Virus record (IMG/VR): IMGVR_UViG_3300001765_000049
Coordinates: 1 to 52,568 of that record
DNA: 52,568 nt
Strand: one strand, 5' to 3'
DNA from: a virus
Lineage: Duplodnaviria; Caudoviricetes
Under the pieces are notes generated by a model, which was not told the origin of the DNA, did no database searches, and saw only the letters and a list, made by a program, of their open reading frames with translations. Numbering within the stretch: the stretch's first letter is position 1; every line of letters starts with the position of its first letter. Below, piece after piece: positions 35,843 to 47,130 of the stretch. The translations under genes and the position numbers were made by a program.

Positions 35843-36126
35843 ATTGCGTTTTCTTTAATACATTTTTCGATTTCTTCTCTCGTCCATAGGTTTCCTATTG
35901 GAAAATCTTTCTTTTCACGAGTACTGATTCCAATAAATGGTCTATGATATTTCCTTACACAATCATTAATGAAATCAATTAAACTGAAAATATCTTCATC
36001 TGGAGATACGTAGAATTCGTAGCCAAGCATTGCAGGACCACCACATTTAATGTCAGTTGAATCGTTTCTTTCGCATGAAACGTCCACATATATTGCATCA
36101 CAAACTTCAATAATTTTAGTTTTCAT
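35839..36126 (-). CDS. Hypothetical protein
   Basis: 95 aa, overlaps both neighbours. Confidence 0.55.
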   Translation of the reverse strand: MKTKIIEVCDAIYVDVSCERNDSTDIKCGGPAMLGYEFYVSPDEDIFSLIDFINDCVRKYHRPFIGISTREKKDFPIGNLWTREEIEKCIKENAI

Positions 36127-36619
36127 TATTTAAAAGATTTAAAATTTTATCTTTAATACCACATTGTTTAATGCCTTCACTGACACGTGGAGTTATAACA
36201 AAATGTTCCGGACTTATCCACTGGCTTAAATCTAAGTCATCAATAGCGACCCAATTAGTTAAAGTGTGCTCGGCAACATATTTGTTAATCTCGTATGCAC
36301 GACATTCCTCTAGTTGTTGTAGACTATAAAATATATGACCCCATGAAGAAGCCGTAGTATCAGAAACAATTGCATTTACAGCATTCCATTTGAAAATTTC
36401 ATTCATCTGTTCGATGGTGTAATTCAATTTCCAATCACTTGATAGGATAATTTTTGCACCACTGAGATTATCAAGAATTGAATTGAAAACCTTAACGCAT
36501 TTTTCATCGAAACGATAACAATTTAAAGCAGGATGCCACTTCTTTCTATTGGTATTGAATTGATATGATGTAGCTAGTACACCATCAATATCGAGAAATA
36601 TGTGAGGACTATTGTTCAT
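36116..36619 (-). CDS. HAD-superfamily phosphatase (Swiss-Army-Knife RNA-repair-like)
   Basis: FLDIDGVL, IILSSDWK, R..EI and WVAIDD. Confidence 0.85.
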   Translation of the reverse strand: MNNSPHIFLDIDGVLATSYQFNTNRKKWHPALNCYRFDEKCVKVFNSILDNLSGAKIILSSDWKLNYTIEQMNEIFKWNAVNAIVSDTTASSWGHIFYSLQQLEECRAYEINKYVAEHTLTNWVAIDDLDLSQWISPEHFVITPRVSEGIKQCGIKDKILNLLNNEN

Positions 36620-38008: not shown

Positions 38009-38031
38009 ATTTCAGTTATTATATTTTGCAA

Positions 38032-38120: not shown

Positions 38121-38156
38121 TATATTTGTAACAATTTAAATCTAGGTTTCGTATAA
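38121..38156 (+). promoter_or_regulatory. Host-type TATATTTG overlapping an ECF-type TGTAAC-N17-CGTATAA promoter
   Basis: TATATTTGTAACAATTTAAATCTAGGTTTCGTATAA, upstream of 38169. Confidence 0.7.
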
Positions 38157-38463: not shown

Positions 38464-39465
38464 ATGGGAACAAAATATGCGTCAAAAGAATTACAAAATG
38501 AAATTGTTTCTTTATACGAAACAAAATCGGAAAATGATATTGCTATCATGTATGATAGAACACAATCGGGAGTTAATTTAATATTAAGAAGAAATGGAAT
38601 TATTAAGTTAAAGAAAAGTAGATTGAATATGAGCCGCCTTGCGCTTAATGTTGATTATTTTAAAAAGATTGACTCCAATGATAAAGCATATTGGTTGGGT
38701 TTTATTTGTGCAGATGGTTGTATTAATAAAAGTAATAATAAGGTATCTTTAATTTCAAAAGATTTGGATGTTATTATTGGATTTAAAGAAGCTATTGGTG
38801 CTGAACACGCTATTAGTAAAAGGGTGCATTTTGATAAACGAACAAATAAAACGTATACTGCATATAGCATTCAAATTGGAAATGAAATATTCACGTCACA
38901 TTTAATTAATTTAGGTGTCACTTCGGATAAAACAAATGTATTGGAATTTCCAAAAATTGATGAAAAATATTATTCGTATTTTATTGCAGGTTTATTTGAT
39001 GGAGATGGGTCGGTTTCGTGGAAAGGGAAATATAAAAATCGTTTAACAATTAACCTAATATCAACACAAGAAATTCTAAAATTCATTTCAGAATACATTG
39101 AAGTAAATTTAAATATAACTCCAAAATATTGTTGTAGCGTCACCAAGAACAAACCAAATGTTTGGAAAATGCATTTATATTCTGATGCACATAGATTTTT
39201 AGAATTTATATATTCTGACAATAATTTCAAATATTATTTGAAGCGAAAATATGATATGTTTTTAAATAACACCATTAATCGAGAAAATGTTCGACATTTT
39301 AGAAAAGTGCTTCAATATGATATTAACATGAATTTGATTAAAACTTGGAATAGCAAAAAAGAAATTAGTGATACATTATTGTGTTCAGAATCAAACTTAA
39401 ATAAATACTTAAAAAATGGTAGTAAAAGAGGAACATTTAGAAATCACATCTGGAAATATGAATAA
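38464..39465 (+). mobile_element. Free-standing LAGLIDADG homing endonuclease with a C-terminal NUMOD1-like domain
   Basis: Two motifs, YWLGFICADG and FIAGLFDGDG; C-terminal KVLQYDINMNLIKTWNS; has its own GTATTTAT motif at 38442. Confidence 0.85.
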
Positions 39466-40042
39466 TAACAATACTTTTAATAATTGCCTGTTTTTGGATT
39501 GTGACGGTGTACTCAATTATGGGTTGTTTTACGAAGAAAGATATAAGCAACTAACTAAGTATAACGACATTCCATTCTACAAGACGGTAAAGAAGTACTT
39601 ACGTAAACTACTTAAGTCTAAAGAACTTTCAAGACTTGATTACTATAAGAGTCAAATGTGTCCAATGCGTATGCAATTACTCAATGAATTCTGTGCCGAA
39701 ACCAATAGCGCAGTGGTGCTCAGTGCAAGTATGCGTAGTGGTTGGACTGTTGAAGACCTTCAGAAAATATTTAATTATTGTGGTGCGACATTTACTATAA
39801 TAGGAAAGACTGGTCACAGTGAGGAAAGAATTAGAGGCGTTGAAATTTATAGTTGGTTAAAAGATAACTGCAAGACATGGTTTGGTGTTGATTATTATGA
39901 TTTCAGTCGGTACATTATATTTGATGATGATGGCGATTTTTTAATTTGGCAACAATCTAATTTTTTCCAATGTGACAATTATGTTGGTCTTACTCCAACA
40001 ATAACATATAGAGCTAAACGATATTTAAATAGTTTAAGATAG
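39458..40042 (+). CDS. HAD-superfamily phosphatase (Swiss-Army-Knife RNA-repair-like), second paralog
   Basis: FLDCDGVL, VVLSASMR, RGVEI and YIIFDDDGD. ATG 39458 overlaps the endonuclease stop. Confidence 0.85.
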   Translation: MNNNNTFNNCLFLDCDGVLNYGLFYEERYKQLTKYNDIPFYKTVKKYLRKLLKSKELSRLDYYKSQMCPMRMQLLNEFCAETNSAVVLSASMRSGWTVEDLQKIFNYCGATFTIIGKTGHSEERIRGVEIYSWLKDNCKTWFGVDYYDFSRYIIFDDDGDFLIWQQSNFFQCDNYVGLTPTITYRAKRYLNSLR

Positions 40043-40391: not shown

Positions 40392-41276
40392 ATGACAGAC
40401 GTTGAATTGATTGGTAAAATCTTAGTATCAAAAAAACCTTCAGATATTTTTCCGGATGATTGGAAAAAAACATATTTACAATACAGTAAATTGATTCATC
40501 CCGATGCTTGTAGTCAAGCAAAGGCTTCGGAAGCAATGGCAAAATTGAATTATTACAAAGATATCGTTGAAAATGGTATTGGATATGTTGATGAAACCGG
40601 ACCATTCCGGGTTTTTGAAAAGAAAATAGTGTATACTGTTAACGATACCAATCGTAAACTAATCACAAAGTCCGTTAATAACTACAAAATATTAATGTCA
40701 AAGTCTGACAAAGCGTCAGTAGTATTTCATCGTTATCTGCCAGAAAGCATGAAGCTGGAAAATGACCGACTTATAATTTATTTGAAAGACCGTGCAGTTC
40801 CACTCACAAATCAGAAATTGTCACAAAATCACGTTAACTGGCTGTTCAGTAGGATGTTCGAGTTTACCTTGTGGCTTAGAAACATTGGGTATTCTCACTT
40901 GGGATTAAACCCCACAACAGTCTTTGTAGTGCCTGAAACTCACGGTATTATACTGATTTCGTTCTATCATATGACTCCATTGGATAAGAAAGCCGAAACC
41001 ATTAGTGCTAAATATAAAATGTGGTATCCAACTACATTATTTACAAAAAAAATCGCCACGCAAGATATTGATTTGGAATTATGTAAGAAGATTGCACTAT
41101 ATTTGTTAGGTGATAGGTCAGGAGCAGGTACTAAGTTGAAGGTTAATAAAGATGTGAACCAGGAAATGCTAACATTTCTTTTGACTAAGCATCAAAATGA
41201 AGTTGAGGAATACGCTCAGTACAGAGAATTATTAAAAAAGAACTTTGAGAAAAAATTTTATCCGCTAAATTTGTAA
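40392..41276 (+). CDS. J-domain-like (HPD) protein fused to a degenerate kinase-like domain
   Basis: KTYLQYSKLIHPD...EAMAKLN; catalytic-loop-like YSHLGLNPTTVFV lacks the Asp. Confidence 0.65.
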   Translation: MTDVELIGKILVSKKPSDIFPDDWKKTYLQYSKLIHPDACSQAKASEAMAKLNYYKDIVENGIGYVDETGPFRVFEKKIVYTVNDTNRKLITKSVNNYKILMSKSDKASVVFHRYLPESMKLENDRLIIYLKDRAVPLTNQKLSQNHVNWLFSRMFEFTLWLRNIGYSHLGLNPTTVFVVPETHGIILISFYHMTPLDKKAETISAKYKMWYPTTLFTKKIATQDIDLELCKKIALYLLGDRSGAGTKLKVNKDVNQEMLTFLLTKHQNEVEEYAQYRELLKKNFEKKFYPLNL

Positions 41277-41301
41277 CATTATAGAAATAAATTGCGTATA
41301 A
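41272..41301 (+). promoter_or_regulatory. ECF-type promoter TGTAAC-N17-CGTATAA
   Basis: Upstream of 41347. Confidence 0.7.
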
Positions 41302-41346
41302 TTGCATTCTGAATATAATTAGTATTAACAATTAAATTTTAAAATT

Positions 41347-41550
41347 ATGGGAAAAGACACCTTTTCAAAGCCACAGACGTTCGAAGAAATGGTTGAGGCA
41401 CAGGAAACTCAGGAAGCTGCTGTTTCTACACCTGAAGTAACACAGGAAGTTGTTGCAGATACAGAACCCACTCAAGAGGGTGATAAACCATGTGATTGCA
41501 GTGAGCCTTGTGCTGACAATTGCGATTGCACAACTCCAAAAGCCGAATAA
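41347..41550 (+). CDS. Small acidic peptide with a C-terminal five-Cys cluster
   Basis: 67 aa, E/T/A-rich, ending PCDCSEPCADNCDCTTPKAE. Confidence 0.65.
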   Translation: MGKDTFSKPQTFEEMVEAQETQEAAVSTPEVTQEVVADTEPTQEGDKPCDCSEPCADNCDCTTPKAE

Positions 41551-41552
41551 TC

Positions 41553-42473
41553 ATGGGATACAGTGGTTGGTCTGATGATGCATATACCAATCTTACTTCA
41601 AGTAAGAAATATGCCAGTAAAAGTGCTGATGAAATCTTTGCGAAGACTATCAACAGCGATATGGACCCAATTAACCTTGGAATTAGAGAATCACGTGACA
41701 GTGATGCTCACCCAACATCGTTAGCTGTAATGGTTTTTCTTGATGTAACAGGTAGTATGGGTAGAATTCCCCATACAATCGCACAGGAGAAACTCGGTGC
41801 ATTGATGAACACCATCATTAATAATGGTGTCGAACATCCTCAAATCCTTTTCGGAGCAATCGGTGACCATCGCACCGATAAATTTCCACTCCAAATTGGT
41901 CAATTCGAAGCAGGTACTGATGAACTTGACAAATGGCTAACTAGCGTTCATATTGAAGGTAATGGTGGTGGGCAACGTAAAGAAAGTTATCTTCTTGCAT
42001 GGCTTGCCGCAGGTCGCCACACTAGTATCGATTGTTTTGAGAAACGTAATGAAAAAGGTTTCCTTTTTACAATTGGTGACGAAGCAAGTTGGGATAGTCT
42101 TGATGTCAAAACACTGAAAGAACTACTTGGTTATGCAGAGGCACAGCTAGTTACCGACCAACAGATTTTGGACGAAGCACAGAGACTTTATAATGTATAC
42201 CATATACATATCAATGAGGGTAGTTACCGTGACGATGACGAAATTTTGGGTTATTGGAAAAGAATGCTCGGAGAAAGACTCATTGTGTTGAATGACTACA
42301 ATGCGGTTTGTGAAACCATTGCAACCCTTATTGCGGTACAGCATGGTGTTGACATGGCATCCGTTGTAAGCAAATTCAGTGCATCAATCGCAGGAGCAGT
42401 CTCAACAGCACTCGCAGTAGTTGGTGCAACAGCACTCGCTAATACACCTGACGAAGGAACGTTAAAACTTTAA
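41553..42473 (+). CDS. von Willebrand factor A (vWA) domain protein
   Basis: MIDAS motif LDVTGSM, AIGD, GGGQRKESY and FTIGDE. The likely start is MGYSGWS at 41553. Confidence 0.8.
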   Translation: MGYSGWSDDAYTNLTSSKKYASKSADEIFAKTINSDMDPINLGIRESRDSDAHPTSLAVMVFLDVTGSMGRIPHTIAQEKLGALMNTIINNGVEHPQILFGAIGDHRTDKFPLQIGQFEAGTDELDKWLTSVHIEGNGGGQRKESYLLAWLAAGRHTSIDCFEKRNEKGFLFTIGDEASWDSLDVKTLKELLGYAEAQLVTDQQILDEAQRLYNVYHIHINEGSYRDDDEILGYWKRMLGERLIVLNDYNAVCETIATLIAVQHGVDMASVVSKFSASIAGAVSTALAVVGATALANTPDEGTLKL

Positions 42474-42491
42474 TAGAGACATATTTGAGAC

Positions 42492-42526
42492 AAAAGGGAC
42501 ATGTTGAAAAATATGTCCCTTTTTTT
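42492..42526 (+). terminator. Rho-independent terminator
   Basis: AAAAGGGACATGTT-gaa-AAATATGTCCCTTTTTTT; the T tract runs into the next promoter. Confidence 0.75.
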
Positions 42527-42554
42527 GTAACATTAATTTTAATTATCCGTATAA
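42526..42554 (+). promoter_or_regulatory. ECF-type promoter TGTAAC-N16-CGTATAA
   Basis: Upstream of 42574. Confidence 0.7.
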
Positions 42555-42573
42555 TCGGGAAAAATATTAACAT

Positions 42574-43722
42574 ATGGCAAAGATAAAAATAATTCTCGGA
42601 CTTGGCTTCGGGGATGAAGGTAAGGGTTCAACTGTTAATTCGTTATGTGGCAATGTTGATGACACCTTAGTTATAAGATTCAACGGGGGGCATCAAGTTG
42701 GACATACTGTTGTCCATAATAATATCCACCACGCATTTTCAAATTATGGTTCAGGTACACTTAGAGGTGTTGCAACCTATTGGAGTGAATACTGTACTGT
42801 AAATCCAGTTGCGGTAATTCGTGAGGGCGAAGCACTTAAGAAATTTGGTATAGACCCCATTGTTTATTACAATGCAAACGCAATGGTGACTACACCTTTC
42901 GACATTTCGCACAATAGAAGTTCTGAAATACAAATTAATCACGGTAGTGTGGGTGTGGGTTTCGGTGCAACCATTCAAAGAAATGAAGACCACTATCACC
43001 TATATGTAAGGGACTTACAATTTCCAAAAATCAGGGATGAAAAACTCCGGTTATTAATGAATAATTATTATAATTATAATTTTGAACCCGAAGAACCACA
43101 TCAAAATGCCTATACGAGATTATTATATGATGAATTCATAAAATCTTGCGATTTATTTGTCAAAACCCACGAAATTGTTAATGACCTTGAAGGTACTGGA
43201 GCACTTAGTGCTGATAAAGATTTGATTTTCGAAGGTGGACAGGGCATTTTACTTGACCAAGACTATGGGTTCTTTCCACATGTTACAAGAAGTAATACCA
43301 CTTCAAAAAATGCATTGAAAATCATACGTAATAATGGTTTGGAAACCGATGACATCAAAACATATTATGTTAGTCGTGCATATCAAACCCGTCATGGGAA
43401 TGGCTACATGAGTAATGTGGGTATGGATACTTCATACATCAAAGAAAACCCCAAAGAAACCAATGTTATGGGTTTTCAAGGTGAGTTCCGGAAAACCGTA
43501 CTTGATTTGGATTTAATGAGTTATGCATTATCTTGCGATAATCATCATAATAAATTATCTACTAAATACCTAGTACTTACTTGTTGCGACCAAATTCCGG
43601 AACAAGTTCCAATTACAATGAGCAGTAATTTGCATTTAATGTCACCAAAAGAAATTGCAGAACGATTAGGTTTACGAATAATTAGTAGTAAATCTGAAAA
43701 GGGATTTTTATATTGTTTTTAA
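42574..43722 (+). CDS. purA: Divergent adenylosuccinate synthetase (PurA) family protein
   Basis: GFGDEGKG, RFNGGHQVGHT, FEGGQGILLD, FPHVTRSNT and YQTRHGNG; lacks the canonical GxTTGRxR loop. Confidence 0.8.
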   Translation: MAKIKIILGLGFGDEGKGSTVNSLCGNVDDTLVIRFNGGHQVGHTVVHNNIHHAFSNYGSGTLRGVATYWSEYCTVNPVAVIREGEALKKFGIDPIVYYNANAMVTTPFDISHNRSSEIQINHGSVGVGFGATIQRNEDHYHLYVRDLQFPKIRDEKLRLLMNNYYNYNFEPEEPHQNAYTRLLYDEFIKSCDLFVKTHEIVNDLEGTGALSADKDLIFEGGQGILLDQDYGFFPHVTRSNTTSKNALKIIRNNGLETDDIKTYYVSRAYQTRHGNGYMSNVGMDTSYIKENPKETNVMGFQGEFRKTVLDLDLMSYALSCDNHHNKLSTKYLVLTCCDQIPEQVPITMSSNLHLMSPKEIAERLGLRIISSKSEKGFLYCF

Positions 43723-43735
43723 TTAAATTTATTAA

Positions 43736-43743
43736 TATATTTG
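43736..43743 (+). promoter_or_regulatory. Bacteroidota -7 element TATATTTG
   Basis: Upstream of 43760. Confidence 0.5.
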
Positions 43744-43759
43744 TTAAAAATTTATTCTT

Positions 43760-44077
43760 ATGTCAACTTTATTCGATGATGACTACAAAGACCATGCACG
43801 TACATATGGCACTCCAGATAGTCGAATGTTAAAAGAAGTTATTGATGCTGGTTTCAAACCCATTGCAATCACTGTAATGATATGTGAAGAAACATTTGTT
43901 TTTAGAAGTGATAAGGAAGCTAATGATGCTTGGGAAGTCTTTAAAAACGAAGGTTGGTGGTATGGTTTATCTGCATTTGATGAAAGTCGTGAGCAATATG
44001 TTAAAGAATTGTATGGTGGTGATGAAGATAGTGCACCACTTGTATATTGGCTGGATAAAAACTTTGAACCTAAATAA
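43760..44077 (+). CDS. Hypothetical protein
   Basis: 105-aa acidic ORF. Confidence 0.6.
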   Translation: MSTLFDDDYKDHARTYGTPDSRMLKEVIDAGFKPIAITVMICEETFVFRSDKEANDAWEVFKNEGWWYGLSAFDESREQYVKELYGGDEDSAPLVYWLDKNFEPK

Positions 44078-44329
44078 ATGGAAAATTTAAATAAACCAAA
44101 GTATGGTATTTTAGATAATGGATTATTCGGTGTTCGAATAATATCAGGTATTGTAACAGGTATTAGGTATACAGAAGATAAACCCGTATATGAAATATCA
44201 TTTGGTAAAGATAAGTGGTGGACAACTGAAATTACTGATAATTTGGAAGATGTTTTCAACGCATTAAAAATAACATCATTAGATAGAGTCGCTAAGACTC
44301 ATGGTTTATCAATTAAATTTGGAAAATAA
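44078..44329 (+). CDS. Hypothetical protein
   Basis: 83 aa, translationally coupled to neighbours. Confidence 0.6.
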   Translation: MENLNKPKYGILDNGLFGVRIISGIVTGIRYTEDKPVYEISFGKDKWWTTEITDNLEDVFNALKITSLDRVAKTHGLSIKFGK

Positions 44330-45132
44330 TGAAATTCCTAATACAAAAAATCAACGGTGAAATCAGACATGATTTTGCATTTACCTTGCTTGAATCAATC
44401 AGATTTAAGAAGTGGTTAAGTCCAGAGGATAAAATCGTGGTTAAATTCGCAAATACCTATGAGATAACCGACCCCGATATGATTTATCCTAATCCTTTCA
44501 AAGATTATCATAAAGACTATGTGCCTGTGGGTAGTGTGGATTTTGTTACCGACTTTCTAATGTATTTCTATGGCATAACTCCGAAACCCATTAATGTTCC
44601 TTCACTATTATTTCCATATGCAAATAGAAAGATAATTAATACCTATACAGAATGCCCACCACCTTTTGGAAAAGTATTTGTTAAATCTAATGATAAAATT
44701 AAATCATTTACTGAAATAATTGGTGCGGACTATGACCTTAAACCCGGAAATTATCAAATTAGTGACCTAATTGATATTGAAAGCGAATGGCGTGCATTTG
44801 TTTATCAAGATAAACTCGTTGGGTTACAAAATTATAGTGGTGATTTCACAATGTTTCCGGACGTATCACAAATAAATCAAATGATTATAGCGTATAAAAA
44901 TGCACCTGTTGCATATACTTTAGACGTTGGAGTTTTTGACGAAAAGACGTTTGTAATTGAGGTTCACAATTTTTTTAGTTGCGGACTATATGGTTTTGCT
45001 AACCATGCAATATATCCGCACATGCTTTATAAGTGGTTTAAAGAATACCTGAAATTAATGGGTAAAGAATTCTGGGAAAACTATAAGCATGAATCTTTAC
45101 CAAACATAAAAGAATATTTGAAAAAAGGTTAA
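44329..45132 (+). CDS. ATP-grasp domain protein (DUF4343/R2K-like)
   Basis: PVGSVDF, VFVKS, SEWRAFV, YTLDVG and VIEVHNFFSCGLYG. Confidence 0.8.
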   Translation: MKFLIQKINGEIRHDFAFTLLESIRFKKWLSPEDKIVVKFANTYEITDPDMIYPNPFKDYHKDYVPVGSVDFVTDFLMYFYGITPKPINVPSLLFPYANRKIINTYTECPPPFGKVFVKSNDKIKSFTEIIGADYDLKPGNYQISDLIDIESEWRAFVYQDKLVGLQNYSGDFTMFPDVSQINQMIIAYKNAPVAYTLDVGVFDEKTFVIEVHNFFSCGLYGFANHAIYPHMLYKWFKEYLKLMGKEFWENYKHESLPNIKEYLKKG

Positions 45133-45297: not shown

Positions 45298-45327
45298 TGT
45301 AACATTATTAGAATTGAATACGTATAA
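45298..45327 (+). promoter_or_regulatory. ECF-type promoter TGTAAC-N17-CGTATAA
   Basis: Upstream of 45345. Confidence 0.7.
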
Positions 45328-45344
45328 TCAACAAATATATAATT

Positions 45345-45719
45345 ATGGCAAGTATTGAAATTAATGGGGTAACATACCAAGGCAGTTCGATTACAATGAA
45401 AGGTAATCAAATTATCGTTAATGGTAAGAACGTCACTCCCGATGGAAAAGAAATAAACATTTTGGTTGAAGGTAACATTAATGAAGTCCAGATTGATAAT
45501 TGTAATAAATTATTGATTAACGGCAATGTGAATACTCTCAAATCCGGAAGTGGCGATGTTAATTGTAATACGGTCACCGGTAATATCCAAACCGGAAGTG
45601 GTGATGTTGAATGCAGTGATGTTGGTGGTAGCATTCAAACCGGAAGTGGTGATGTTAACGCAGGTAATATTATTGGTGGTGTTCGAACAGGTAGTGGAGA
45701 TATTAAATATAAAAAATAA
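45345..45719 (+). CDS. Small beta-solenoid repeat protein (DUF4097-like)
   Basis: Four [ST]GSGD[VI] repeats with a 16-aa period. Confidence 0.7.
   Translation: MASIEINGVTYQGSSITMKGNQIIVNGKNVTPDGKEINILVEGNINEVQIDNCNKLLINGNVNTLKSGSGDVNCNTVTGNIQTGSGDVECSDVGGSIQTGSGDVNAGNIIGGVRTGSGDIKYKK
45543..45704 (+). repeat. Coding tandem repeat, 48-nt period, 4 copies
   Basis: CCGGAAGTGG(C/T)GATGTT-like units starting at 45543, 45591, 45639 and 45687. Confidence 0.75.
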
Positions 45720-46002: not shown

Positions 46003-47130
46003 ATGGACACTAAAATTTTTCCGGTTCTTTTCAAGAAAACCAGTACGGGTGCAATACAGGAATGGCAAGTTGGCGTTTATGATGTCGATGGAATTGCTAC
46101 CATTATAAATGATTACGGTCAGGTTGGTGGTAAAATTCAGCAAAGTAAGGAGCAGGTTCTTGAAGGTAAGAATATTGGTAAAGCAAATGAAACATCTGCA
46201 TTTGCACAAGCATTTGCACAAGCTAAAGGTCGTTGGGAAAAACAGTTAAAGAAAGGTTACGTGGAATCCATCGAAGATGCACAACAGGGTAAAACCGATG
46301 CTATCATTGAAGGTGGCGTATTCCCGATGCTTGCACACAAATTCAGTGAACAGGGACACAAGATTAAATATCCTGCACTGGCACAGCCAAAGTTGGATGG
46401 ACACCGTTGTACTTCACAAAATGAAAATGGTGAAACAACATTGTGGTCAAGAACCAGAAAACCAATTTTGAGTGTGCCACATATTGCAGAAGCACTTGGT
46501 AATCCTGTTATTCTTAACAGATTTGATGGCGAATTATATAACCACAAATACCACAATAATTTCGAAGAACTTAGTTCAAAAATTCGTCAGGAAAAACCAG
46601 TTGAAGGATATGAGGAAGTTCAATACCATGTATATGATTTTCCGAATCCTACGTTAACAAACATGGAACGTTATAAGACCTTGGAAGCAATGCGAGAGCA
46701 TTATGAAGGCACACCTATTCATATTGTTGAAACCATTGTGGTTAATAACGAAGATGAACTCATGGAAGCCTTTGAACACTTTCTTGCAGAAGGTTTTGAA
46801 GGTTGTATGGTAAGAAATGCTGATGGTAAATACGTTTATAAACGTTCGTATGACTTACAAAAAATCAAAGAGTTTGATGACAGTGAGTTTAAAATCGTTG
46901 GTGTAAAGGTTGGTACAAAAGGGAGTATGGCAGGTAAGGCAGTGTTTACTTGTGAGAATGGTGACACCACATTCGATGTTAAATTAAAAGGTAATATGGA
47001 TGAACTCACCAAGTATGCTAATGACCCATCATTGGTAATCGGTAAAATTCTTACAGTTAAATATCAGGGAATGACCAAATATGGTCAGCCAAGATTTCCG
47101 GTAGGTTTAAGATTCAGGGAGGATTTATAA
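46003..47130 (+). CDS. ATP-dependent DNA ligase with an N-terminal WGR-like extension
   Basis: Motif I QPKLDGHR, III FDGELY, IIIa YHVYD, IV EGCMVR, V QKIK; OB domain ending PRFPV. Confidence 0.9.
   Translation: MDTKIFPVLFKKTSTGAIQEWQVGVYDVDGIATIINDYGQVGGKIQQSKEQVLEGKNIGKANETSAFAQAFAQAKGRWEKQLKKGYVESIEDAQQGKTDAIIEGGVFPMLAHKFSEQGHKIKYPALAQPKLDGHRCTSQNENGETTLWSRTRKPILSVPHIAEALGNPVILNRFDGELYNHKYHNNFEELSSKIRQEKPVEGYEEVQYHVYDFPNPTLTNMERYKTLEAMREHYEGTPIHIVETIVVNNEDELMEAFEHFLAEGFEGCMVRNADGKYVYKRSYDLQKIKEFDDSEFKIVGVKVGTKGSMAGKAVFTCENGDTTFDVKLKGNMDELTKYANDPSLVIGKILTVKYQGMTKYGQPRFPVGLRFREDL

Follow-up and report, generated by a model that had tools for sequence, protein, structure and literature searches.

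A jumbo-phage copy of a widespread module that pairs a vWA protein with a PurA-like ligase

The DNA analysed here is a fragment of 52.6 kb from the IMG/VR virus record IMGVR_UViG_3300001765_000049 (Caudoviricetes; G+C content about 31%), and the whole stretch of 52,568 nucleotides is referred to as the window. Its completeness was estimated to be 16%, and its relatives are jumbo phages with genomes of 325–349 kb. From position 40392 to 45132 of the window, a row of genes encodes a pseudokinase with a J-like domain, a small acidic protein, a vWA-fold protein with a MIDAS motif, a PurA-family ligase, two small proteins and an ATP-grasp protein (Table 1). A first-pass annotation, made from the letters of the sequence, proposed these genes as a candidate uncharacterised system, and all of the open reading frames (ORFs) that it placed in this region were found there, co-oriented on the plus strand. 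When the cluster was searched by megablast against the phage collection, no match was obtained. Eight cluster proteins gave no match to the PADLOC models, and neither Pfam nor NCBIfam contained a match for the pseudokinase, the acidic peptide, the vWA protein or the small ORFs.

Table 1. Coordinates of the features in and around the cluster. Positions are those of the window unless a locus handle is given; aa, amino acids; AF2, AlphaFold2.
Feature	Position	Strand	Basis or remark
HAD_SAK_2 phosphatase	39416..40042	+	PF18143 6e-15
Small membrane ORF	between the HAD gene and the 294-aa pseudokinase gene	+	
J-like domain + pseudokinase, 294 aa	40392..41276	+	HPD alignment, AF2, Foldseek
Promoter-like motif GTAACA-N18-(C)GTATAAT	41273..41302	+	before the 67-aa peptide gene
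Acidic protein, 67 aa	41347..41550	+	positional homologues in close viral loci
vWA-fold MIDAS protein, 306 aa from ATG	41553..42473	+	phrog_2971 1.3e-45, AF2, Foldseek
Terminator-like hairpin + T-run	42492..42526	+	RNA fold -18.5 kcal/mol, between the vWA and PurA-like genes
Promoter-like motif GTAACA-N17-(C)GTATAAT	42527..42555	+	before the PurA-like gene
PurA-family ligase, 382 aa	42574..43722	+	PF00709 3.1e-40
Two small ORFs, 105 aa + 83 aa	43760..44077, 44078..44329	+	variable among relatives
R2K-clade ATP-grasp	44329..45132	+	PF18299 1.3e-19, PF14243 1.7e-14
Promoter-like motif, next copy	45299..45328	+	downstream end of the PurA-like/ATP-grasp unit
Repair-type genes of the window	36116-36619, 39416-40042, 46003-47130, 48975-49973, 50785-51624	-, +, +, +, +	
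Helical first-gene examples at other loci	L165:6621-6998, L169:6630-7001, L191:6570-6944, L120:5648-5998, others		

The order of the genes was compared in three sets of loci. The close viral set comprised 31 loci with vWA identities of 65–78%, a nearness that says little on functional linkage, and the distant viral set comprised 64 loci with identities of 40–63%. The bacterial set consisted of the best 80 of 388 stretches, mostly from Bacteroidota, which were collected with one peptide pattern from species-representative genomes. The PurA-like gene adjoins the vWA gene at 31/31 close viral, 61/64 distant viral and 73/80 bacterial loci. The pseudokinase gene lies directly 5′ of the vWA gene at 29/31, 20/64 and 71/80 loci, respectively. 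These linkage counts indicate that the pair of vWA and PurA-like genes is an invariant core, and that the first gene is interchangeable. The vWA family was found in at least 534 viral stretches and 388 genome stretches, and a tblastn search of phage records gave 219 vWA and 236 PurA-like matches, about 200 of each from Mycobacterium phages. Cultured phages carry the core in three arrangements: kinase gp270 (with HPD present), vWA, a small gene and PurA-like gp273 in Mycobacterium phage I3; a Met/Gly-rich protein, a small gene, vWA and PurA-like in Rhizobium phage RHph_TM30; and a Met/Gly-rich protein, vWA, a small gene and PurA-like in Vibrio phage phiKT1024. The flanks of the bacterial modules vary between genera. 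Positions 40392–43722 of the window are a jumbo-phage copy of this widespread, unnamed module, and in the lineage of the window as well as in Bacteroidota the core is preceded by the J-domain pseudokinase. The first-pass annotation pointed to similar neighbourhoods in bacterial genomes, and this was borne out by the bacterial loci (71/80 and 73/80) and extended to phages. A lack of co-occurrence in other genomes, which it named as part of what would refute its proposal, is contradicted by the linkage counts of this neighbourhood analysis.

Two other kinds of protein were observed in the first position. A helical protein of about 110–125 aa with the common motif FLxSLxRNNxKIRxDRAxAIAED replaces the J-pseudokinase immediately 5′ of the vWA gene at 37 of the 64 distant viral loci and 2 of the 80 genome loci. 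The Met/Gly-rich proteins of phiKT1024 and RHph_TM30 are 237–263 aa in length.

The PurA-like protein belongs to PF00709 with a score of 138.7 bits against a gathering score of 27 (3.1e-40). Its closest solved relatives are bacterial PurA enzymes (1.5e-21), and no PurZ structure was among its 22 PDB matches at E <= 0.001. It failed both of the NCBIfam PurA equivalog models, with 121.2 bits against 402 for NF002223 and 93.8 against 395.55 for TIGR00184, and it scored 28.6 bits against the cut-off of 300 for the PurZ model NF038379. In PHROG and RefSeq, it is labelled '2-aminooxy adenylosuccinate synthetase' (phrog_1211). Residues were mapped by a profile–profile alignment with hhalign, in which six canonical PurA sequences were compared with 38 members of the family, and the numbering of E. 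coli PurA is used for the equivalents. Asp13, Lys16, His41, Gln224, Thr239 and the guanine-binding Asp333 are retained, among which Asp13, His41 and Gln224 are catalytic residues of PurA. In the numbering of the family itself, D14, H44 and Q223 are invariant in the 38 members, and the P-loop GDEGKG is kept. The substrate site is different. Asn38 is replaced by Gln, Thr129 by Val or Cys, Arg131 by Val, and Arg143 by variable residues; Val273, Thr301 and Lys331 are replaced by an invariant His, Gln and Cys, respectively; and Arg303 is variable and Arg305 is Phe. The equivalent of the TTGRRRR loop reads N..QG.FR, with a single conserved basic residue in place of the four arginines of PurA. R136, H274, N297, Q302 and C337 are invariant residues specific to this clade, and about 45 residues of the PurA C-terminus are missing from the family.

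The available portion of PMC8342488 describes Arg303 of PurA as contacting both aspartate and the 2′-OH of IMP. Asp13 is given as a PurA residue in the accessible part of PMC12884076, where Ser replaces it in 147/147 phage PurZ sequences. The same part of that paper counts 481 phage homologues of PF00709, of which 147 were assigned to PurZ or PurZ0, and the remainder is not discussed there. In a FastTree phylogeny of 48 rows, a small sampling with some long branches, the 41 module-linked enzymes were split with a support of 97 from six canonical PurA sequences and phiVC8 PurZ. A canonical PurA, scoring 544–564 bits, is encoded elsewhere in 5/5 tested module-bearing Bacteroidota genomes. Judged by these comparisons of sequence, the PurA-like enzyme is a paralogue that is separate from both housekeeping PurA and PurZ. 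The suggestion in the first-pass annotation that this homologue is not a plain enzyme of the AMP pathway agrees with the score of 121 against 402 bits, with the remodelled aspartate loop, and with the canonical PurA in the 5/5 genomes.

The vWA ORF as listed starts from a TTG at 41520, and the length of 306 aa is counted from the ATG at 41553. The AF2 model has a pLDDT of 90.5, and the last 14 residues are disordered. Foldseek gave 237 matches at E <= 0.001, with integrin beta I-like domains first and also integrin I and vWF A domains. The protein has the DxSxS-type MIDAS motif as D64-V-T66-G-S68, and DxTGS or DxSGS is found in 139/142 family representatives, which are full-length and pairwise <=50% identical. 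A profile search over 1.84 billion representatives yielded 2193 clusters (50% identity) at E <= 0.001 and 861 at E <= 1e-30. In a complex prediction of the pseudokinase, the PurA-like protein and the vWA protein, the vWA protein scored as partner gave 0.66, against 0.59 in a control with the PurA-like chain replaced, and these scores are used neither for nor against binding. In a quick, midpoint-rooted IQ-TREE phylogeny of 101 vWA sequences, the 25 distinct viral rows formed one clade (SH-aLRT 100). This clade lay inside a supported group (95) with sequences of Cytophagales, Sphingobacteriales, Hymenobacter and Saprospiraceae, and those of Dyadobacter, Niastella and Prevotella were outside of the group. 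As far as such a quick tree may suggest, it fits with the phage having a Bacteroidota host and with the module having been captured from one. The vWA proteins begin with Met-Gly in 135/142 diverse representatives, which might be a sign that a free glycine at the N-terminus matters for function.

The pseudokinase of 294 aa was modelled by AF2 from an alignment of 40 homologues with a mean pLDDT of 95.6. Foldseek matched the model to at least 500 protein-kinase chains at E <= 0.001, including CHK1, PERK, PKA and CK1 at E about 1e-6, and the DnaJ–PKA chimera structures 8fe5 and 4wb7 were among the top matches. An HPD motif is located at residues 36–38; across the 40 aligned homologues, P37 and D38 never vary, and the conservation of H36 is at least 90%. 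In the AF2 model, this motif sits between helices 24–35 and 45–61 of a J-like region of about residues 24–61. The catalytic loop reads H169-L-G171-L-N-P-T-T, and the HRD Asp is changed to Gly171, which is at least 90% conserved in the same homologues. The Asn of the catalytic loop is replaced by Thr or Ser, and DFG by SFY. The protein matched phrog_3043 'kinase' at 2.6e-6, and weak DnaJ matches were obtained for 27/40 family members, with the best E of 2.3e-5. By its weak DnaJ matches, its HPD motif and its missing catalytic residues, the protein is a J-like domain fused to a pseudokinase.

The other genes of the cluster are restricted in their distribution. The acidic protein contains 17 D+E, 4 K+R and 5 Cys in its 67 residues, and its stop codon is 2 nt 5′ of the vWA ATG. 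A small acidic ORF occurs immediately 5′ of the vWA gene at 28/28 close viral loci, and the copies have in common an N-terminus of MG...SFEEM and a Glu/Thr-rich tail, the MG start being present in 28/28. The Cys cluster is found in 8/29 copies only, which represent 4 distinct sequences. The peptide is absent from the bacterial loci (0/80), and the bacterial cassettes have no room for such an ORF. The ATP-grasp protein is a member of R2K_2, with 71 bits for PF18299 against the gathering score of 26.2. Its gene is located 3′ of the PurA-like gene at 24/31 close viral and 2/64 distant viral loci and at 0/80 bacterial loci. An R2K_2 gene of RHph_TM30 is 17 kb away from the PurA-like gene, and none was found in phiKT1024 or I3. 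A homologue of the HAD phosphatase lies 5′ of the pseudokinase gene at 21/31 close viral loci, with an identity of just 31% at two of these, and at 0/80 bacterial loci. The two small ORFs at 43760–44329 had no Pfam or PHROG family match, and their homologues were present at 8/31 and 1/31 close viral loci. This phage clade alone has added the acidic peptide, the HAD phosphatase and the R2K ATP-grasp to the module. The first-pass annotation counted a Cys peptide and the ATP-grasp as parts of the system. Neither is supported as such: the peptide has positional homologues only in this clade, its Cys cluster being present in only 8/29 copies, and the ATP-grasp gene occurs at 0/80 bacterial loci and is not adjacent in three cultured phage lineages.

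Transcription signals divide the cluster. The pattern GTAACA-N16-19-TATAAT has six exact matches in the window, against 0.19 expected by chance. All six copies read CGTATAAT and take the form GTAACA-N16-19-(C)GTATAAT; they are located at 38031 on the minus strand, and at 38128, 41273, 42527, 45299 and 51629. Seven ECF-type promoters with two inside the cluster were described in the first-pass annotation; six copies rather than seven were found, and the two in the cluster, at 41273 and 42527, were confirmed. Among the relatives, the motif precedes the position of the acidic peptide gene in 7/28, and an exact motif occurs just 3′ of the vWA gene at 17/31 close viral loci. The hairpin at 42492–42526 has a stem of 14 bp and folds with -18.5 kcal/mol (z = -5.0), and 0/200 shuffled sequences folded as well. 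From the positions of the motifs and the hairpin, the likely transcription units are peptide–vWA and PurA-like/small ORFs/ATP-grasp. No promoter motif is present between the PurA-like and ATP-grasp genes in the window or in the relatives (0/24), no distinct promoter was found 5′ of the ATP-grasp gene in the window, and a sigma-70 scan gave 37 sites against 36.2 in shuffled sequences, that is, no excess. The separate host-type promoter before the ATP-grasp gene, which was the reason given for regarding its link as the weakest, was thus not seen. Because no motif separates the two genes, co-transcription is probable, and the ATP-grasp is probably co-expressed with the PurA-like enzyme in this phage. 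The motif at 45299 is the downstream limit of this unit.

In several relatives, at loci L010, L011, L014, L018-L021 and L152-L158, 0.8–1.6 kb of extra DNA was observed between the vWA and PurA-like genes. It sits at the terminator/promoter junction, which is the expected insertion place for mobile genes.

Some of the module loci lie among genes related to NAD. In Pedobacter and Mucilaginibacter, one operon contains NrtR (Nudix + NrtR_WHD), PRPP-synthetase-like, NAMPT-family, pseudokinase, vWA and PurA-like genes, as confirmed by Pfam, and an ADP-ribosylglycohydrolase gene is added to it in Mucilaginibacter only. Other modules are near NrtR, NADAR, PnuC + NadR or PncB. In total, an NAD-related gene lies <=6 kb from the module at 9/80 genome loci, belonging to about seven lineages by list reading, and a NAMPT/PncB-like gene lies <=7 kb away at 3/64 distant viral loci. 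A NADAR gene is located 5′ of the module in phiKT1024 (Pfam-confirmed). In RHph_TM30, genes for a HAD hydrolase, a PRTase_3 (ComF-like) protein and a Nudix protein annotated as cytidyltransferase are located 5′ of the module (L139:4540-6867). The related jumbo genomes have Nudix genes far from the module. The NAD link is real as a minority signal, and it indicates a physiological setting and not a reaction. The set of HAD, PRTase_3 and Nudix genes in RHph_TM30 also recalls predicted nucleoside-metabolite pathways.

The surroundings of the cluster in the window are of a nucleic-acid repair type, with two HAD_SAK_2 phosphatases, an ATP-dependent DNA ligase, an RNA ligase and a Thg1-like 5′-end nucleotide-adding enzyme. 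A LAGLIDADG homing endonuclease with NUMOD1 is encoded just 5′ of the HAD gene (38464-39465, plus strand), and its region is bordered by two divergent copies of the promoter motif, at 38031 (minus strand) and 38128 (plus strand). A protein of 124 aa at 45345-45719 (plus strand), preceded by a copy of the motif, contains repeated TGSGD(V/I) and matches phrog_3163 (2.6e-37, function unknown). Near-identical DNA is present in three microbial-mat metagenome runs from three studies, with sampled-word shares of 0.99, 0.96 and 0.61, and the first run may be the source.

The reading that we prefer, with a probability of roughly 0.45, is a GTP-dependent amination of a purine at C6 that uses a non-canonical substrate pair and is tied to the rescue of the adenylate or NAD pool in infection. 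In the first step, the PurA-like enzyme would bind a guanine nucleotide and use it to phosphorylate a purine nucleotide at its 6-oxo group, as in the first half-reaction of PurA. In the second step, a different nucleotide would take part and/or free L-aspartate would give way to another nucleophile, and an adenine-type (amidine) product would be formed. The different nucleotide and/or nucleophile is suggested by the replacement of Arg303, Arg305, Thr129 and Arg143 with family-specific residues. An acidic ligand, which in this phage may be the co-translated acidic peptide, would occupy the metal site of the vWA protein, and the HPD of the pseudokinase would recruit the host DnaK; both proteins would act as non-catalytic partners. 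The role of the module would be to keep adenine-nucleotide or NAD-linked pools usable in infection; host takeover or counter-defence, as put forward in the first-pass annotation, is a conjectural role. The upkeep of pools is suggested by the operons with NrtR, PRPP-synthetase-like, NAMPT and ADP-ribosylglycohydrolase genes and by the NADAR, PnuC-NadR or PncB neighbours in some genomes.

Several findings weigh against this reading of C6 amination. No NAD-type neighbour was found at 71/80 genome and 61/64 distant viral loci, no NAD-related gene was present <=6 kb from the module in the window or its close relatives, and a gene of the NAPRTase family was found in 0/5 related jumbo genomes, three of which are complete. 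The loop of Arg303 to Arg305 is aligned by hhalign with low confidence, and what holds whatever the register is the single basic residue. The Pfam DnaJ model (PF00226) matched the window pseudokinase with 12.9 bits and E 0.12, below the gathering score of 27.8. Since a terminator and a promoter lie between the vWA and PurA-like genes, the core is not one transcript in this phage, and since the pseudokinase is swapped for other first genes in many phages, it is not essential to the chemistry. A stronger form of the proposal, rather unlikely in our estimate, is an undescribed chemistry in which the GTP-driven amination at C6 uses ammonia, another amino acid, or the N-terminus of a protein or peptide to give an adenine-type or N6-modified nucleotide, and which, together with the vWA protein, restores or guards the adenylate/NAD pools.

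Other explanations were weighed against the C6 amination. In pairing a vWA protein with a kinase-fold protein, the module recalls the TerY-P triad, which by itself is a defence system according to the accessible part of PMC11090510, and the module might be a bacterial conflict cassette of this type, captured by phages for superinfection exclusion or as a decoy, with the PurA-like protein as an effector that alters a nucleotide pool. The patchy distribution, the variable genomic flanks and the nesting of the phage clade among Bacteroidota sequences in the quick tree would suit such a cassette. However, there is no PADLOC match and no PP2C phosphatase, the kinase is catalytically dead, the at least 534 viral stretches include lytic jumbo phages, and some genomes place the module in NAD-salvage operons and not in defence islands; we regard this origin as unlikely. 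It is quite unlikely that the module is a plain auxiliary metabolic gene, that is, a diverged adenylosuccinate synthetase raising AMP, beside which the vWA protein and the pseudokinase are unrelated or regulatory neighbours. A stand-alone metabolic gene would not be expected to be so tightly linked to a vWA gene in different phyla and phage lineages, and the bacteria with the module retain a canonical PurA (5/5 tested). The match to PF00709 (3e-40), the bacterial PurA enzymes as closest solved relatives (1.5e-21) and the retained equivalents of Asp13, His41, Gln224 and Asp333 would agree with a plain PurA, but the score of 121 bits falls short of the 402 set for the equivalog, and the family does not conserve Thr129, Arg143 or the arginines for aspartate and the 2′-OH and lacks the C-terminal 45 residues.

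The loss of two arginines that bind the aspartate carboxylate, and the MG start in 135/142 vWA representatives and 28/28 acidic peptides, would also be expected from a ligase directed to a protein or peptide, in which an N-terminal amine (Gly2 of the vWA protein or of the acidic peptide) is tagged with a purine nucleotide and DnaK aids the loading. Such a reaction is without precedent in the PurA family, and the N-terminal MG may merely reflect constraints of translation or folding, and we consider it improbable. The label '2-aminooxy adenylosuccinate synthetase' (phrog_1211) would point to a PurZ-type enzyme, which makes a precursor of 2-aminoadenine (Z) for the phage genome. The module is also found in ordinary bacterial chromosomes, and this explanation is hardly credible. 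The PurZ reading was rejected on the retained Asp13, the score of 28.6 against 300 bits, and a clade apart from phiVC8 PurZ.

No published account of the module was found in literature searches on adenylosuccinate synthetase, phage, vWA, pseudokinase and NrtR, so that the statement of the first-pass annotation that no function is assigned agrees with what is in print. The phage papers using 'PurA-like' were genome announcements, no functional study linking adenylosuccinate and mycobacteriophage was found, and neither PurA nor adenylosuccinate occurs in the jumbo-phage survey PMC7824862. The precedent of PurZ indicates that a re-tooled paralogue of PurA can underlie an entirely new nucleotide pathway of phages. 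The second PurA clade described here is larger and more widespread than PurZ, includes about 200 Bixzunavirus mycobacteriophages, and has a different remodelled substrate site and non-enzymatic partners. Once known, the reaction could reveal a new nucleotide, a protein modification, or the handling of nucleotide or NAD depletion, and an undescribed chemistry, if true, would be a new pathway in hundreds of large phages and many bacteria. A function would also replace the labels 'PurA-like', '2-aminooxy adenylosuccinate synthetase' and 'kinase' in hundreds of phage records. The module is carried by cultured phages of M. smegmatis, Vibrio and Rhizobium, and is therefore directly testable.

The module can be compared with several known systems. 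It is like the TerY-P triad, as far as the available text of PMC11090510 describes it, in having a MIDAS vWA gene beside a kinase-fold gene in a compact mobile cassette. It differs in that the PP2C phosphatase of the triad is absent, the kinase, an active Ser/Thr kinase in the triad, is dead and carries a J-like domain, and the third gene is of the PurA family; the Pfam TerY/TerF and PADLOC models had no match to the module proteins. The operon in Pedobacter and Mucilaginibacter shares protein families with NARP1 and NARP2, as these are described in the accessible part of the literature; together with NARP3, they are phage pathways of NAD+ reconstitution. The phage clade of the window is without an NAPRTase-family gene (0/5 genomes). 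The term 'adenylosuccinate synthetase' does not occur in the available portions of the literature naming NARP1. The R2K ATP-grasp family is predicted to contain peptide or protein ligases of phage–host conflicts, according to the part of PMC4431377 at hand, and the product of 44329-45132 is a member of the R2K.2 ligases, which are nearly absent from the module outside of this phage clade.

The pseudokinase resembles J-domain co-chaperones in having an HPD between helix II and helix III, in which P and D are invariant and H nearly so, and differs in that the J-like domain is joined to a pseudokinase, and not to a Zn-finger/C-terminal client-binding region. DnaJ-domain proteins have been reported in jumbo phages, in the available portion of PMC7824862. 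It has the fold of an active protein kinase and lacks the HRD Asp, the catalytic-loop Asn and the DFG Asp. PurA is the adenylosuccinate synthetase EC 6.3.4.4, with E. coli 1ADE among its structures. The PurA-like enzyme has the fold family of PurA, the P-loop GDEGKG, and the equivalents of Asp13, His41, Gln224, Thr239 and Asp333, but it is without Arg303, Arg305, Thr129, Arg131, Arg143 and Lys331, and its gene is paired with a vWA gene. Like PurZ and PurZ0, it is a phage-borne paralogue of PurA that is shorter than bacterial PurA and has a putatively altered substrate use. PurZ accompanies DatZ and MazZ, as stated in the accessible part of PMC8342488, whereas the PurA-like enzyme accompanies the vWA and pseudokinase genes.

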